Below are positions 23,926 to 36,177 of a DNA stretch of 36,177 bases, piece after piece (positions within the stretch are counted from its first letter, which is position 1; each line of letters starts with the position of its first letter). Position numbers and translations under genes: made by a program. The notes beneath the pieces were generated by a model. The model was not told where the DNA came from and did not search any database. It was given only the letters and a program-made list of their open reading frames with translations. Source of the stretch: a virus. Taxonomy: Duplodnaviria > Caudoviricetes. The DNA lies in IMG/VR virus record IMGVR_UViG_3300048611_000076, positions 1 to 36,177 of that record. One strand, given 5' to 3'.

Positions 23926-24123
23926 ATGACCCCCTTACAATCCTGGCGCGCCCGCATGGGATGGACGCAAACCCAAGCAGCCGAGGCCATGGGGGTGACT
24001 AAGCCCACATACCAAAGCTGGGAGAGCGGCAAGCGGTGGAGCGATGGAACACCCCTTCCGCCCCCCAAAACCGCGCTGCTGGCCGCATCAGCTCTTGAGC
24101 AACGCTTGCCCCCCCTCGAATAA
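23926..24123 (+). CDS. XRE/Cro-type helix-turn-helix protein
   Basis: LQSWRARMGWTQTQAAEAMGVTKPTYQSWESG; AGGAGG RBS. Confidence 0.85.
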   Translation: MTPLQSWRARMGWTQTQAAEAMGVTKPTYQSWESGKRWSDGTPLPPPKTALLAASALEQRLPPLE

Positions 24124-32079: not shown

Positions 32080-32260
32080 AGCTCCTTGTTGGTGTTAGGA
32101 GCTGGCTGGAGGCAAATAGCGGGCAAACAAAAACCCAGAAATTGACCGCCGTTGGTACCAGGGACTGAGAGGGTGACGAATCTCTCAGTATGCCAGCGGC
32201 CCATTTCTGGGCTCTTGTCGTCACTTTTTTGGTGCCGGGTACCAGCCAGCAATTCACCGC
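32080..32260 (-). promoter_or_regulatory. Attenuator-like leader of the antirepressor gene
   Basis: Long hairpin at 32134-32211 followed by TTTTTGTTT. A second hairpin AGCTCCT/AGGAGCT (32080-32103) sequesters the SD. Confidence 0.7.
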
Positions 32261-32262
32261 CA

Positions 32263-32290
32263 ATTATCCAAGCTTATCCCATGGAGTCAA
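32263..32290 (-). promoter_or_regulatory. Promoter for the antirepressor
   Basis: TTGACT-N16-GATAAT. Confidence 0.6.
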
Positions 32291-32646: not shown

Positions 32647-32828
32647 TCCGCAGACATCATTCGGAAGTCAGTGCAAAGATCCCCGGGGAGGCGCCAGGCT
32701 ACAGAACCCCAAAAAGCCGCAGGTACATTATTTTGAACCCAGGAGGCCAAAGCCTGCTGCTGGTCCTCTGTGGGCTCGGCTCCAAGTGCATCCAACCGGG
32801 CGTCAAGGCGTGATTCCCAAGCATCCAT
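32634..32828 (-). CDS. Hypothetical protein
   Basis: GAGGA RBS; possible promoter TTGCAT at 32883-32888. Confidence 0.55.
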   Translation of the reverse strand: MDAWESRLDARLDALGAEPTEDQQQALASWVQNNVPAAFWGSVAWRLPGDLCTDFRMMSAECGF

Positions 32829-32930
32829 TTATATATCCTCATTGCGTTGCCGACTTGCGTATAGTGCCAAACTATTTCACACATGCAAGCACTTTATCAA
32901 AATATTGGCGGAATATTCTCTCTATCCCTG

Positions 32931-32958
32931 TTGATTCTGTGTGAAGGGGATGTAAAAT
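32931..32958 (+). promoter_or_regulatory. Promoter of the tRNA/ncRNA operon
   Basis: TTGATT-N16-TAAAAT, 13 nt upstream of the first RNA element. Confidence 0.65.
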
Positions 32959-32971
32959 GGCTTTGCAGTAC

Positions 32972-33104
32972 GGGGAGGTAGCTCAAGCGGGCAATCAGGT
33001 TACTGTGATTAGTGTAAAGCCGGGATGCAGGGCGTAGCCCGAGGAACAGTAACCCTTGGCTCACCGGTGAAGACGCTGCCGGGTAGCGCTGGCCCTCTCC
33101 ACCA
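32972..33104 (+). ncRNA. 133-nt tRNA-like RNA with Ala acceptor identity and an expanded anticodon domain
   Basis: GGGGAGG/CCTCTCC-ACCA acceptor (G3.U70); TAGCTCAAG D-arm start; 9-bp GGTTACTGT/ACAGTAACC stem; GCCGG/CTGGC T-like stem. Confidence 0.7.
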
Positions 33105-33108
33105 ATTC

Positions 33109-33185
33109 GGGGACGCATGTACCAAGAGCGGCGACGATCCCTTGCAAGGATTGTGTGGTGGGTTTGATTCCCACCGTCTCCACCA
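33109..33185 (+). tRNA. tRNA-Ala(UGC) with atypical D-arm
   Basis: GGGGACG/CGTCTCC-ACCA (G3.U70); GATCC-CTTGCAA-GGATT anticodon arm; GTGGG-TTTGATT-CCCAC T arm. Confidence 0.8.
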
Positions 33186-33190
33186 ATTAT

Positions 33191-33275
33191 GGGGCGAACG
33201 CGCTGGTGCGGACGATTCAGCGGATATCAGCTGTATTCCGGTTTCGGGTCTGGTTCGATTCCAGAAGCTCCACCA
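33191..33275 (+). ncRNA. 85-nt tRNA-like RNA with Ala acceptor identity and no canonical anticodon loop
   Basis: GGGGC/GCTCC-ACCA (G3.U70); perfect TCTGG-TTCGATT-CCAGA T arm; CAGC-GGATATCA-GCTG 8-nt loop lacking U33. Confidence 0.7.
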
Positions 33276-33306
33276 ATTAACCGATCCGCTTCCGGTATAT
33301 GAGGTG

Positions 33307-33441
33307 GCATTGATTAGCGCTCGGAGCATGGTGTAACGGTAGCATCCGATTCTTAGGACTGTTCGGCGAAAGCCCATGACGGCAATGGCGATGGCCGTGG
33401 TGCCGGTTCGAATCCGGCTGTAACCGAGCGCTATTCAATGC
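33307..33441 (+). ncRNA. tRNA-elbow mimic (canonical D and T arms) on a 17-bp closing helix, no CCA
   Basis: GCATTGA-T-TAGCGCTCGG pairs with CCGAGCGCTA-T-TCAATGC; TGGTGTAACGGTAGCA D arm; GCCGG-TTCGAAT-CCGGC T arm. Confidence 0.7.
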
Positions 33442-33543
33442 GGTGAATGCCCAGTGGCGACGGGCAGCGAAACCAGTGTAGCGGCCCGAAGATGGACTGG
33501 AACACTTCTAGGGCAAGCCGGGATGGTTGCCGCCGGCACCGCA
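33439..33543 (+). ncRNA. Cloverleaf-like RNA with complementary (kissing) loops
   Basis: TGCGGTG/CACCGCA closing stem; TGCCC/GGGCA and GCCGG/CCGGC arms whose loops GGCGAC and GTTGCC can pair. Confidence 0.6.
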
Positions 33544-33549
33544 GACGAA

Positions 33550-33790
33550 TTGCAGCACCCAGGTAGGACCGCCATGCACGGCTACCTGGCTCTGCTGCAA
33601 CCCAATTGCAGCGTCCCCATTAGGGCGGGGACATGGAGGACGTCGGGTCGACCCTTGCAGGTCGCATCAGCGGCGCAACCACATGCCGGCTACCCGGTCG
33701 GAGCTGCAACCGAACATGGAATGATGCTGGCATACCGCGAAAACCATGTTAGTCAAACTTGATATGCCTGACTGCCGTGAATAGTGCGGC
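33550..33790 (+). ncRNA. Three further structured modules (hairpin 33550-33604, cloverleaf 33606-33709, hairpin/pseudoknot cluster 33713-33790)
   Basis: Stems paired by eye: TTGCAGC/GCTGCAA twice, CCAGGTAG/CTACCTGG, GTCCCC/GGGGAC, CGACC/GGTCG, AACATGG/CCATGTT, AGTCA/TGACT. Confidence 0.55.
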
Positions 33791-33796
33791 ACCTTA

Positions 33797-33873
33797 GCCC
33801 TTGTAGCTCAATTGGCAGAGCGCCCGGCTTGTAACCGGGAGGTTGCGGGTTCGAATCCTCGCCTCGGGCTCCA
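33797..33873 (+). tRNA. tRNA-Thr(UGU), imperfect acceptor stem
   Basis: TAGCTCAATTGGCAGAGC D arm; CCCGG-CTTGTAA-CCGGG; GGTTCGAATCC; encoded CCA. Confidence 0.85.
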
Positions 33874-33884
33874 CATACTAATCA

Positions 33885-33960
33885 GGGCCGGTAGCATAAC
33901 CGGTAGATGCAGCCGGCTCATAACCGGCAGAACGGGGTTCGAATCCCTGGCGGCCCACCA
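33885..33960 (+). tRNA. tRNA with CAU anticodon, probably tRNA-Ile2 (lysidine) rather than Met
   Basis: GCCGG-CTCATAA-CCGGC. Paired G1-C72 excludes fMet; C4-G69/C5-G68 are TilS-type determinants. Ends ACCA. Confidence 0.8.
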
Positions 33961-33972
33961 AATTCCAGGCAT

Positions 33973-33997
33973 AAGAAAGGCCGCTCTGTGGCGGCCT
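33973..33997. terminator. Terminator between the convergent RNA operon and early genes
   Basis: AGGCCGC/GCGGCCT stem; TTTCTT tract on the minus strand. Confidence 0.7.
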
Positions 33998-34015
33998 ATA
34001 ATCTATCTTAGGAAA

Positions 34016-34234
34016 TCAGTCTTCTGGCACTATTTCATATTTTAGAGTTTTCCCTAGCGTCTCCAGCGTCGCCTTAATCTCCAGGCATTGATCAATAGTA
34101 CCAAGACAGTCCTTAAAGTCACTGTCTCCCGACTTCCACCGGCATCCAGGACAACGCAAATCTACAAACCTCCATCCCAAAAACCAGGAACTCCTAATCC
34201 CGTACATTCCGTTTTCGAACTTGACGATTTTCAT
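34016..34234 (-). CDS. Hypothetical protein (MKIVKFENGMYGIR...)
   Basis: GGAG RBS and ATGA overlap give start 34234. Confidence 0.7.
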   Translation of the reverse strand: MKIVKFENGMYGIRSSWFLGWRFVDLRCPGCRWKSGDSDFKDCLGTIDQCLEIKATLETLGKTLKYEIVPED

Positions 34235-34443
34235 TGCTTTGTCTCCGACTTGTGCCCCAGCCCCTCGTTTAGCACCTCTTGTATACGGCATCCCAGCAGT
34301 TGCAGGGACTCACGAGAGAGCCGCGCCACAATCTCCTCAGCCACCCCCAGCGCCTGGCCGTCGGTCAGCAGCACTTCGGATGGATAGCACATCATGGCGA
34401 TATGCTCGCCGCACCTGGCTAGGATTACGTTTGGCTCTGTCAT
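34231..34443 (-). CDS. Hypothetical protein
   Basis: Overlap-coupled ORF with GAGGAG RBS. Confidence 0.65.
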   Translation of the reverse strand: MTEPNVILARCGEHIAMMCYPSEVLLTDGQALGVAEEIVARLSRESLQLLGCRIQEVLNEGLGHKSETKQ

Positions 34444-34622
34444 TTCCCTTCTCCTCTCTGCTTCCTGATCCTGATTTCCTCCCGGTCTACAGCAACCGAT
34501 TGCGGAGCGTCAATTGCCAATTTCACTTGATGAGATCGGCGGTCTACCTCGACGATAGTCACGCGGATATCATCTCCGATGATGATTGACTCGTTAATAC
34601 GTCTTGTGAGTATTAGTGACAC
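34440..34622 (-). CDS. csrA: Carbon storage regulator CsrA/RsmA homologue
   Basis: LILTRR.NESI.IGDDI.VT.......QVKL.IDAP..V.V.REEI aligns by eye with CsrA, including the Arg44 equivalent. GGAGGAG RBS, GTG start. Confidence 0.92.
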   Translation of the reverse strand: MSLILTRRINESIIIGDDIRVTIVEVDRRSHQVKLAIDAPQSVAVDREEIRIRKQRGEGK

Positions 34623-35351: not shown

Positions 35352-35567
35352 TCACTCCTCCAGCATCTTCTCTAGTTTAGCCGGCATCCTCACCAGCCCG
35401 AGGCGGAAGCAGGCGCCAATAACACGGTCGCCGTGCTTGTCCTTCAATTCCTCGGGCAGCTTGCGGATGTTGCTCTCTGTCGTCCCCAGTGCCGCAGCTA
35501 GGGCTTTAGTTTGCTCTGCGTTGCTGGCTCCGGGGGCGAACAGTTGTAATGCTACACTTTTTCTCAT
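35352..35567 (-). CDS. Cro-like repressor
   Basis: MRKSVALQLF...KALAAALGTTESNIRKLPEEL...RVIGA, Cro-type HTH. First gene of the divergent operon. Confidence 0.7.
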   Translation of the reverse strand: MRKSVALQLFAPGASNAEQTKALAAALGTTESNIRKLPEELKDKHGDRVIGACFRLGLVRMPAKLEKMLEE

Positions 35568-35609
35568 GGTCTGCGGTTCTCGTTTGCGCCAATTTGTGGA
35601 AAATATTAC

Positions 35610-35638
35610 TTGACTGTGTGAGAATTTACTCTTATTGT
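35610..35638 (+). promoter_or_regulatory. Early promoter (PL-equivalent)
   Basis: TTGACT-N17-TATTGT; spacer contains TGTGAGAATTTACTCT. Confidence 0.75.
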
Positions 35639-35651
35639 TTGCAGAAATCAA
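35623..35651 (-). promoter_or_regulatory. Early promoter (PR-equivalent), overlapping the + promoter
   Basis: On the minus strand TTGATT-N17-TAAATT. Confidence 0.6.
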
Positions 35652-35668
35652 GCAAAGGAGAAAAGGAA

Positions 35669-36177
35669 ATGTCAGGCAAAATAATGATAACACTGGGCGA
35701 GATTCATAAGCACAACCCGTGTGCGGATGGATGGCGCAAGCTGCTGAAAGCCAAAGGGAAAACCGTTGCCGATGGTGATCAGTTCCCCCTGTCGGATATC
35801 CTGGATACTAACGACCTGGATGACTGTCTATGGGCTCTCAGATGCACACCGGAAAGCTACCACGGCCTATGGCGTAAGTTTGCAGTGTGGGCAGCGCGGC
35901 AGGTCGAACATTTAATGGAGGATGAGCGTAGCAAGACGGCGCTGGATGTGGCATGGCGCCATTCTAACGGAGAGGCTACTGATGAGGAGCTAGCCGCAGC
36001 CGGGGACGCAGCCAGGGCCGCAGCCTGGGCCGCAGCCAGGGACGCAGCCGGGGACGCAGCCGGGGACGCAGCCAGGGCCGCAGCCTGGGACGCAGCCGGG
36101 GACGCAGCCAGGGCCGCAGCCTGGGACGCAGCCGGGGACGCAGCCAGGGCCGCAGCCTGGGACGCAGCCAGGGCCGC
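35669..36177 (+). CDS. First early gene, 5' part. It wraps through the origin to TGA at 237-239 (~206 aa on the circle). Phage protein with a (G/R/W)(D/A)AA repeat tract, possibly Imm5-like.
   Basis: AGGAG/AAGGA RBS, ATG at 35669. Translation MSGKIMITLGEIHKHNPCADGWRKLL...FAVWAARQVEHLMEDERSKTALDVAWRHSNGEATDEELAAAGDAARAAAW. Not in the ORF track because it crosses the ends. Confidence 0.85.
   Translation, partial: MSGKIMITLGEIHKHNPCADGWRKLLKAKGKTVADGDQFPLSDILDTNDLDDCLWALRCTPESYHGLWRKFAVWAARQVEHLMEDERSKTALDVAWRHSNGEATDEELAAAGDAARAAAWAAARDAAGDAAGDAARAAAWDAAGDAARAAAWDAAGDAARAAAWDAARA
36051..36177. repeat. Terminal direct repeat (copy of 1-127)
   Basis: Identical to 1-127. Confidence 0.9.

Follow-up and report, generated by a model that had tools for sequence, protein, structure and literature searches.

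The cassette and its RNAs

The subject of this report is a run of small structured RNAs in the complete virus record IMGVR_UViG_3300048611_000076, the genome of a soil podophage. The record is 36,177 base pairs (bp) long and 99% complete according to CheckV; this whole stretch of DNA is referred to as the window. Between about 32970 and 33960, its plus strand carries a cassette with no recognised protein gene, flanked by two blocks of minus-strand genes. The cassette opens with three tandem units, RNA1, RNA2, and RNA3, which were delimited from sequence and folds and are separated by only 4 to 5 nucleotides (nt). Their features, all on the plus strand, are as follows.

32931-32958, plus strand: predicted sigma-70 promoter (TTGATT, 16 nt, TAAAAT), ending 13 nt upstream of RNA1
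32972-33104, plus strand: RNA1, 133 nt, with an alanine-type end, five arms, a 7/5 acceptor/T branch, A73, and CCA
32998-33005, plus strand: loop A of RNA1, 8 nt, at the anticodon position; seven of its bases can form Watson-Crick pairs with loop B
33045-33053, plus strand: loop B of RNA1, 9 nt, on the three-way junction that ends the long arm and predicted to kiss loop A; its own stem has a pair probability of about 0.5
33109-33185, plus strand: RNA2, 77 nt, tRNA-Ala(UGC), anticodon at 33143-33145
33191-33275, plus strand: RNA3, 85 nt, with an alanine-type acceptor and an 11-nt acceptor/T branch
33223-33228, plus strand: 6-nt palindrome in the central loop of RNA3, a possible homodimer contact (chance 4.6% for an 8-nt loop)

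A common alanine end

All three units open with GGGG and close with CTCC, A, and CCA, giving G1-C72, G2-C71, G3.U70, G4-C69, and A73 in both sequence and folds. According to Table 1 of PMC9976931, the bacterial alanine determinants are A73, G2-C71, G3.U70, and G4-C69, with no anticodon element, and this full set is present in three of the three units. G20 in the D loop counts as a minor element of the bacterial alanine set; RNA2 has a G at position 20, and the unusual D regions of RNA1 and RNA3 have no defined numbering. The first-pass annotation of this DNA had pointed to the common end, to inner acceptor pairs that differ among the three RNAs, and to the lack of an anticodon in two of them, and each of these observations stands. 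At the anticodon position, RNA1 and RNA3 carry 8-nt loops that start with GG and have no U33.

Could such a cluster arise by chance? Among 5000 dinucleotide shuffles of 32900-33990, 4986 contained no unit, 14 contained one, and none contained two or more, against the three actually found. The same loose unit rule applied to the plus strand of the whole genome returns four units, hence one outside the cluster. Standard tools do not report the cluster: ARAGORN and Rfam at its gathering score miss RNA1, RNA2, and RNA3 and find only the Thr and CAU transfer RNAs (tRNAs) downstream. Global folding z-scores are unremarkable (-0.54 for RNA1, -0.68 for RNA2, and -0.06 for RNA3).

Further evidence comes from the one metagenome locus that has this promoter, a contig termed L143. 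Its first RNA (2987-2867, minus strand, 121 nt) has an unrelated body and carries G1-C72, G3.U70, G4-C69, and A73. When RNA1, RNA2, RNA3, and this fourth RNA are compared, pairs 2, 5, and 6 change, while G1-C72, G3.U70, G4-C69, and A73 are constant. The comparison of these four sequences is the best evidence suggesting selection on the alanine end, and the ends may share ancestry. Charging of RNA1 and RNA3 by alanyl-tRNA synthetase (AlaRS) is likely, because alanine is the only bacterial identity in Table 1 of PMC9976931 that involves neither an anticodon element nor a long variable arm. The three RNAs, though, are not one kind of thing.

RNA2 belongs to a family of phage alanine tRNAs

Judged from its sequence, RNA2 is a true tRNA-Ala(UGC), and the phage family to which it belongs has an odd D arm. 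Like any decoding tRNA, it folds as a 7/5 cloverleaf, with U33 and an alanine anticodon in a loop of 7 nt. BLAST matches it to phages of Vibrio, Pseudomonas, Pectobacterium, and Mycobacterium, some of whose records annotate tRNA-Ala, and it is 87.8% identical to the gene of Vibrio phage EniLVp02. G3.U70 is present in each of nine distinct copies collected from the available loci of the family, eight of them with a UGC anticodon and one with CGC. Covariation was run on eight of the nine. In a structure of 21 pairs, 168 of 168 cells are paired and 13 pairs vary on both sides, a result found in none of 500 shuffles; slid controls are 43-64% paired.

Why do gene finders overlook this family? Instead of the canonical U8 and D stem, C8 and a bulged D stem of three pairs are found in eight of eight copies, which is likely the reason that ARAGORN misses RNA2. 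The elbow pair 19-56 is G-C in seven of these eight and a compensated A19-U56 in RNA2. Phage tRNA-Ala genes with an altered D arm are already called in GenBank for Vibrio phage EniLVp02, Mycobacterium phage Reindeer, and Pseudomonas phage PE09, and RNA2 is a member of this group, with the same invariant D-arm letters and the UGC anticodon. It differs in A19-U56 and in its setting, a 36-kb podophage, whereas genes of the EniLVp02/Reindeer/PE09 type have G19-C56 and sit in the tRNA array of a large lytic phage. An RNA2 model at E 1e-11 found no match in 151 bacterial genomes, in a search run without a positive control.

With its alanine anticodon and its covariation kept, RNA2 is under decoding selection and thus irrelevant to any non-decoding idea. 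The first-pass annotation had grouped all three RNAs as selected for alanylation independent of decoding. The part that holds up is that the alanine set looks kept and that RNA1 and RNA3 are non-decoding; the grouping of RNA2 with them was wrong.

Pairs of alanine-type tRNAs turned up elsewhere as well. In 11 of the 26 listed rows (L028, L035, L043, L046, L078, L080, L093, L099, L100, L119, and L120) there are at least two G3.U70 tRNAs with unlike D arms, a count that is no frequency estimate, since the search pattern favours paired G3.U70 tRNAs. One of those in L099 has a CUA (amber) anticodon, and two in L119 have non-alanine loops.

Architecture of RNA1 and RNA3

RNA1 combines an acceptor of 7 bp (pair probability, 0.92-0.95) with a T-like stem of 5 bp (0.64) that carries a 6-nt non-canonical loop, so that its acceptor/T branch comes to 12 bp. 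The D-like stem has 4 bp (0.83), and the hairpin at the anticodon position has 5 bp and an 8-nt loop (0.46-0.57). A long arm, firm at its base (0.84-0.91), ends in a three-way junction. There is neither a D-loop GG nor a normal T loop. The most striking element is the complement between loop A and loop B, which is 7 bp long; the longest loop-loop match in 1000 shuffles with the ends fixed is 5 bp. It extends to 9 nt in total (32998-33006 with 33046-33054). The two loops are predicted to make contact either within one molecule or between copies. An alternative nested fold, in which the complement forms a plain helix, lies 2.8 kcal/mol above the minimum with kissing energy excluded, and RNA1 may switch between the kissing and the nested fold.

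RNA3 is smaller. Its acceptor consists of 5 bp and a G6.A67 mismatch (pair probability, 0.95-0.96), its T arm is canonical, and 11 rather than 12 nt separate the T loop from the discriminator. A weak D-like arm (0.16-0.38) has GG, the variable hairpin is short, and the central hairpin has 4 bp and the 8-nt loop that contains the palindrome. The computed homodimer energy (-69.6 versus -54.4) comes without a shuffle control and is not counted as evidence.

Homologue searches found no relative of either RNA. For RNA1, the BLAST matches among cultured phages were all short and due to chance or to the T arm, plasmids yielded nothing useful, and a pattern scan of viral contigs returned three unrelated loci. 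For RNA3, BLAST found no homologue among cultured phages and plasmids, and a strict pattern had no match in viral contigs. Matches of T4-like phages to the RNA3 T arm were rejected as homologues, being ordinary tRNA-Gln and tRNA-Ile genes. In contig L142, positions 1501-1621 encode a 121-nt tRNA-like RNA with G3.U70 whose D and T arms are normal and whose anticodon loop is replaced by a long insert; it has a short motif in common with the long arm of RNA1.

Short acceptor/T branches in other phages

Might the 11-nt branch of RNA3 be a flaw peculiar to this copy? When viral contigs were scanned for branches of 10 or 11 nt ending CTCCACCA, 64 loci were returned; 36 of them are distinct, and a T stem of at least 5 bp is present in 21. 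The 11-nt-branch pattern was found in none of the 401 bacterial genomes searched. The short branch recurs in phages and is thus not merely a defect of RNA3. These loci are look-alikes of RNA3 rather than demonstrated homologues. The pattern itself fixes U70; a 5' start was assignable in 23 of the 36 distinct loci, the nearest one being taken, and in L174, L182, L189, L228, and L230, a longer start, which puts the other of G and A at position 3, fits too.

One case with G3.U70 comes from Escherichia coli phages of the Kuravirus type, which carry an unannotated 115-nt RNA with a 6/5 branch and with G3.U70 in four of the four copies read. It is located at 412-528 of L231 (Escherichia phage SR02, OQ870566.1) and in L242-L244, where it follows a tRNA-Arg, ends in CCA, and lacks an anticodon arm; 30 records cover at least 80% of it. 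The SR02 RNA was considered as an RNA3 homologue and rejected: a likeness of seven letters is not kept in three of the four Kuravirus copies, and the RNA is therefore treated as an analogue. As these are cultured E. coli phages, the role of anticodon-less phage RNAs becomes testable in E. coli.

Other short-branch RNAs have a different third pair. L169, L178, L181, L182, L193, and L215 form a phage RNA family with a 6/5 branch and CCA that lies directly after a GAAA-type hairpin. All five members with an assigned start have A3-U70, and the L169 form occurs in 16 contigs. In Aeromonas phage AhSzw-1 (L238), an unannotated tRNA-like RNA within a tRNA array has A3-U70, CCA, and no clear anticodon arm.

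Turnover of the cassette among relatives

Eleven sequencing runs are listed for this DNA, ten from soil and one from a sediment metagenome, all of them DNA. They and the metagenome contig L143 allow the cassette to be followed among kin. L143 is syntenic, with antirepressor, promoter, cassette, terminator, downstream genes, and a CsrA homologue at 97% identity. Both promoter hexamers are identical in the two, and the spacer between them differs at several places. The contents of the L143 cassette differ from those of the window throughout. They include a 54-nt unit with A3-U70, which may instead be the leader of the next gene, and a last RNA (2210-2128) whose 11-nt loop has a 6-nt palindrome (chance 8.9%).

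The soil runs point in the same direction. In runs X8 and X11, five contigs align with the window through the promoter as far as 32976 or 32978 and then continue into at least four different bodies. The letters near the alignment ends are not listed, so the presence of G3 in these contigs is read from where the alignments stop. One of them connects 32976 to 33264 through 81 other letters. The differences listed for soil relatives in the region of the promoter fall at 32930 and 32940-32945. The near-identical copies in X5, X6, and X7 have no change inside the three RNAs.

More distant relatives add little. The letters of the window's promoter had no match in the viral-contig scan, with a pattern that would have missed L143. 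Five records related by replication protein and capsid have no ARAGORN gene and no GGGG..CTCCACCA unit; four of the five are fragmentary, and in the single complete record (G001) the early region is different. L161 (PAPR01000007.1), a complete phage contig of 38 kb whose capsid is 81% identical, is found in a Pseudooceanicola metagenome-assembled genome, possibly mis-binned, and ARAGORN gives no RNA gene in it.

What might RNA1 and RNA3 do?

Fast-changing accessory loci are often devoted to anti-defence. The turnover of this cassette behind a kept promoter, in a window in which neither a tyrosine integrase nor an S24 repressor domain was found, fits that pattern. The reading we favour, tentatively and at a little under even chances, is that RNA1 and RNA3 are charged, non-decoding anti-defence decoys that head a swappable, tRNA-shaped cassette together with a real tRNA, RNA2. 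The starting points are directly seen in the DNA: the layout, the promoter-like site, the alanine set, the missing anticodons, the loop complement, and the turnover between kin. How would the decoys work? The promoter would drive a single transcript from which, on established knowledge of such RNAs, RNase P and 3' trimming would release the individual RNAs, and AlaRS would then charge RNA1 and RNA3. Loop-loop pairing, inside RNA1 or between two copies of RNA3, is predicted to hide the spot that anticodon nucleases cut. With no free anticodon loop left to cut, the charged RNAs would survive and tie up toxins or defence effectors that target tRNA. The cassette's Ala, Thr, and CAU genes, which encode true tRNAs, would make up for host tRNAs that had been destroyed.

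There is precedent for the setting. Phage tRNA variants, including tRNA-Thr(UGU), counter the PARIS system, which targets tRNA-Thr(UGU) in E. coli (PMC12409363), and several toxins recognise the acceptor stem (PMC11559606). The tRNAs of phage T5 resemble the present RNAs in being phage-borne, non-standard variants, tRNA-Thr(UGU) among them, and differ in being decoding replacements (PMC12409363). RNA1 and RNA3 cannot decode, so any protection that they give would have to be by binding.

A number of observations speak against decoys of this kind. The counter-defence cases consulted in PMC12409363 and PMC11559606 are resistant replacement tRNAs; neither paper describes a decoy RNA or so much as uses the word decoy, and no preference of FaRel2 or AriB for alanine tRNA is reported there. 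Binding of RNA1 and RNA3 by EF-Tu is doubtful, given that neither the D-loop GG nor a normal T loop is present in RNA1 and that RNA3 has an 11-nt branch. Homologues of either RNA are missing among phages and plasmids searched by BLAST and viral contigs searched by pattern. Nor is the alanine end universal among comparable RNAs. The first RNA of L143 has C2-G71 and no encoded CCA, and the last has G3-C70 and U73 and thus no alanine set; in the window itself, RNA5, farther along the same cassette, has G3-C70 and likewise lacks the set. Of the 23 short-branch look-alikes with an assigned start, 14 have A3 and 9 have G3; after six rows were dropped by eye as ordinary tRNA or transfer-messenger RNA (tmRNA) ends or chance pairings (L167, L184, L187, L213, L223, and L225), 10 with A3 and 7 with G3 are left (n = 17). 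Finally, one sediment contig from run X9 has about 380 nt at this locus compared with about 1030 in the window, so not every member of this phage group carries the RNAs.

A bolder version of the decoy reading can also be imagined, and is unlikely as it stands. Phages may keep an exchangeable library in which the alanine end is set on unrelated bodies, and kissing loops may join these into a multivalent, uncleavable RNA sponge against tRNA-targeting defence. The kissing loops would hide the anticodon position, and dimers or chains would present several Ala-CCA ends at once. If true, this would be an RNA-only class of anti-defence factor.

The strongest competitor to the decoys, which we regard as possible and somewhat less probable than they are, takes the alanine end as a handle only. 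On this account, the end would provide an RNase P cut, a protected or charged 3' end, and stability, and the function would lie in swappable bodies, much as in an engineered tRNA scaffold; the bodies could offer protein-binding or antisense loops or form kissing-loop oligomers. The bodies are indeed unrelated and exchanged between kin, the cassettes include RNAs with tRNA-like ends that lack the alanine set, and A3-U70 is common in the short-branch class. Moreover, the loop-loop complement of RNA1 and the palindromic loops of RNA3 and of the last L143 RNA recall the kissing loops of GOLLD, ROOL, and OLE (10.1101/2024.12.08.627333). In that source, GOLLD and ROOL are phage noncoding RNAs near tRNA islands whose kissing loops are in some cases palindromic. 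GOLLD, ROOL, and OLE differ from the RNAs described here in being much larger and in having no aminoacyl end, and none has an Rfam match in the window. An antisense function finds no target in the phage: across 43 start regions and the antirepressor leader, the best matches measured 8-9 nt, a length that 91 (RNA1), 174 (RNA2), and 179 (RNA3) of 200 shuffles attained. A plain handle would also not need the weak G.U pair, yet this pair is kept while its neighbours are replaced.

Are RNA1 and RNA3 perhaps just leftovers, tRNA-Ala ends that were duplicated or recombined and kept by chance or as processing sites? The flat folding z-scores would agree with this, as would the G6.A67 mismatch and weak D arm of RNA3, the lack of homologues, the X5, X6, and X7 copies without variation inside the RNAs, and the shorter cassette of one relative. 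Against decay, the stems of RNA1 are fully paired and its loop-loop match exceeds that of 1000 shuffles; unrelated phages and the Kuraviruses have the short branch too, with G3.U70 in all four Kuravirus copies read, and the promoter hexamers are kept. This explanation strikes us as quite improbable.

A role in blocking ribosome rescue, with RNA1 and RNA3 as mimics of the tmRNA head that bind SmpB, has to be measured against phage DS6A, whose tmRNA is reduced to its tRNA-like domain without a coding sequence and is an anticodon-less alanine RNA (PMC4131195, PMC11915505). An alanine end without an anticodon is the tmRNA design, and the DS6A form inhibits tmRNA in E. coli (PMC11915505). Like RNA1 and RNA3, the DS6A head, which lies at JN698994.1 28478-28560 and is about 80 nt long, is phage-borne and has G3.U70 and A73, no anticodon, and no tag frame; in RNA3, moreover, GG followed 5 nt later by GAC before the central helix is loosely DS6A-like. 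The likeness ends there. DS6A has a 7/5 branch, no D stem, a tmRNA 5' motif, and a 4-nt linker, whereas RNA1 has a D stem (0.83), a non-canonical T loop, and no linker, and RNA3 has an 11-nt branch and a hairpin as linker. The Rfam tmRNA model scores DS6A at 43.2 bits, matches only a 24-nt tail of RNA1 at 4.2 bits, and gives no match to RNA3 at E 10; RNA2 reaches 29.6 bits from its two ends. No tmRNA-style tag frame ends inside the RNA1 body, as the sole longer frame in a three-frame translation stops in the T-like loop without an Ala-Ala end. RNA1 and RNA3 are not tmRNA, and the SmpB role that the first-pass annotation had offered among several is unsupported by these scores and layouts and, in our view, very improbable.

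Less probable again is a service as alanine donors for non-ribosomal transferases, such as those of lipid or cell-wall alanylation, with the odd elbows serving to avoid EF-Tu. RNA1 does lack the D-loop GG and a normal T loop, and such transferases use Ala-tRNA-Ala (PMC2175331), but the scanned phage proteins include no such transferase, and cassette turnover and kissing loops would go unexplained, so that we give this little credence. Decoding by RNA1 or RNA3 as frameshift or four-base suppressors, to which 8-nt loops at the anticodon position and the D-loop GG and normal T loop of RNA3 might lend some colour, can hardly be believed when both loops start with GG and lack U33, the RNA1 loop is predicted to be paired, and the RNA3 branch is one base short.

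Relation to other irregular RNAs

Mukai et al. (PMC5389517) described allo-tRNAs and polycistrons of irregular tRNAs, in tandem and from soil, some with G3.U70. Some of these irregular tRNAs are charged yet unused in translation, and there is a link to toxin-antitoxin systems. Their RNAs have 12-bp branches of the 8/4 or 9/3 (or 7/5) type and anticodon loops, whereas RNA1, of the 7/5 type, has five arms and a loop predicted to be paired, RNA3 is 5(+1)/5 with an 11-nt branch, and both sit in a podophage cassette. The 8/4 or 9/3 branch that marks allo-tRNAs is found in neither. The portion of PMC7609411 consulted has no 11-bp or phage case. Phage T4 also has stable non-decoding RNAs of 119-139 nt, species 1 and 2 (rnaC and rnaD), in its tRNA cluster; they have no sequence likeness to the cassette RNAs and no G3.U70 alanine end. 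Literature searches, thin on subscription papers, returned nothing on the present RNAs or on an 11-nt-branch phage class.

Anticodon-less alanine phage RNAs (DS6A), irregular tRNA polycistrons (Mukai et al.), and kissing-loop phage RNAs (GOLLD and ROOL) are thus already known. What is added here is a cassette with exchangeable contents, the complementary loops of RNA1, and a class of RNAs with an 11-nt branch. Bacterial immunity commonly targets tRNA, which phages are known to counter with resistant replacement tRNAs; charged RNAs unable to decode, if that is what RNA1 and RNA3 are, would be a different answer. The cassette also offers a natural comparison, since a decoding tRNA-Ala stands in it side by side with two alanine RNAs that do not decode and with neighbours that are not of the alanine type.

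The remainder of the cassette and its surroundings

Downstream of RNA3, the cassette continues with the following elements.

33286-33307, plus strand: spacer hairpin after RNA3, present in L143 with base changes and covered by relatives in X8 and X11
33310-33437, plus strand: RNA4, a long closing helix round a tRNA-like D/T core, without an alanine end
33440-33543, plus strand: RNA5, with a 6-bp closing stem and G3-C70 (not alanine)
33550-33709, plus strand: two more structured elements, both covered by relatives in soil runs
33770-33790, plus strand: 21-nt hairpin motif, identical in L143 (2241-2220) and in ten viral contigs (L144-L153)
33797-33873, plus strand: tRNA-Thr(UGU), whose T stem is bulged and whose acceptor has two mismatches
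33885-33960, plus strand: tRNA with a CAU anticodon, called Met; C4-G69 suggests Ile2 (Ile determinants as in PMC9976931, Table 1)
33978-33997, minus strand: terminator-like hairpin facing the converging minus-strand genes, conserved in L143, which closes the cassette

RNA4 has a fold z-score of -2.81 and reaches 21.9 bits on the Rfam tRNA model, under the cut-off. We take its design to resemble that of Y RNA-like molecules; it has no Rfam match, and no Ro60 gene is among the scanned proteins. In RNA5, the loops of the 5' and 3' hairpins are complementary over eight pairs including G.U, and RNA5 has an 11-nt stretch in common with RNA1 (33515 and 33017). The idea that RNA5 might be a C4 antisense RNA was dropped. 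The C4 model (RF01695), which scores P4 at 74.9 bits as a positive control, has no match at gathering in the window, nor at E 10 in 32800-34100. The search for antisense targets likewise gave no C4-type complement in the antirepressor leader, the best match being 9 nt and reached by 91 of 200 shuffles. Relaxed ARAGORN settings gave mostly noise.

Around the cassette, the protein scan found head and tail genes of the P22/Sf6 type, DnaB, NinG, an antirepressor, a Rad52/Erf protein, a CsrA homologue, and one small HTH_3 match at 23935-24039. The closest named match of the terminase is Gilvimarinus chinensis at 65%, too weak for naming a host. Could the cassette have replaced a cI gene? This was considered and dropped, the cassette lying between two minus-strand blocks and the divergent point of the genome lying near 35565-35670. 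An open reading frame with alanine-rich tandem repeats spans the contig ends (35672-36177 plus 1-240), from which it follows that the record is circular. The leader of the antirepressor gene (32090-32275, minus strand; L143 3210-3360) appears by eye to form a long branched hairpin, and between the window and L143 it has a similar closing helix and a different body.

The CsrA homologue is encoded at 34440-34622 on the minus strand (Pfam E 2.7e-17; 97% identical in L143). GGA motifs are present in RNA1, RNA3, and RNA5. The 21-nt hairpin motif has no Rfam match; the ten contigs that carry it belong to about five unrelated types, and in six of the ten, it lies directly upstream of a tRNA gene.

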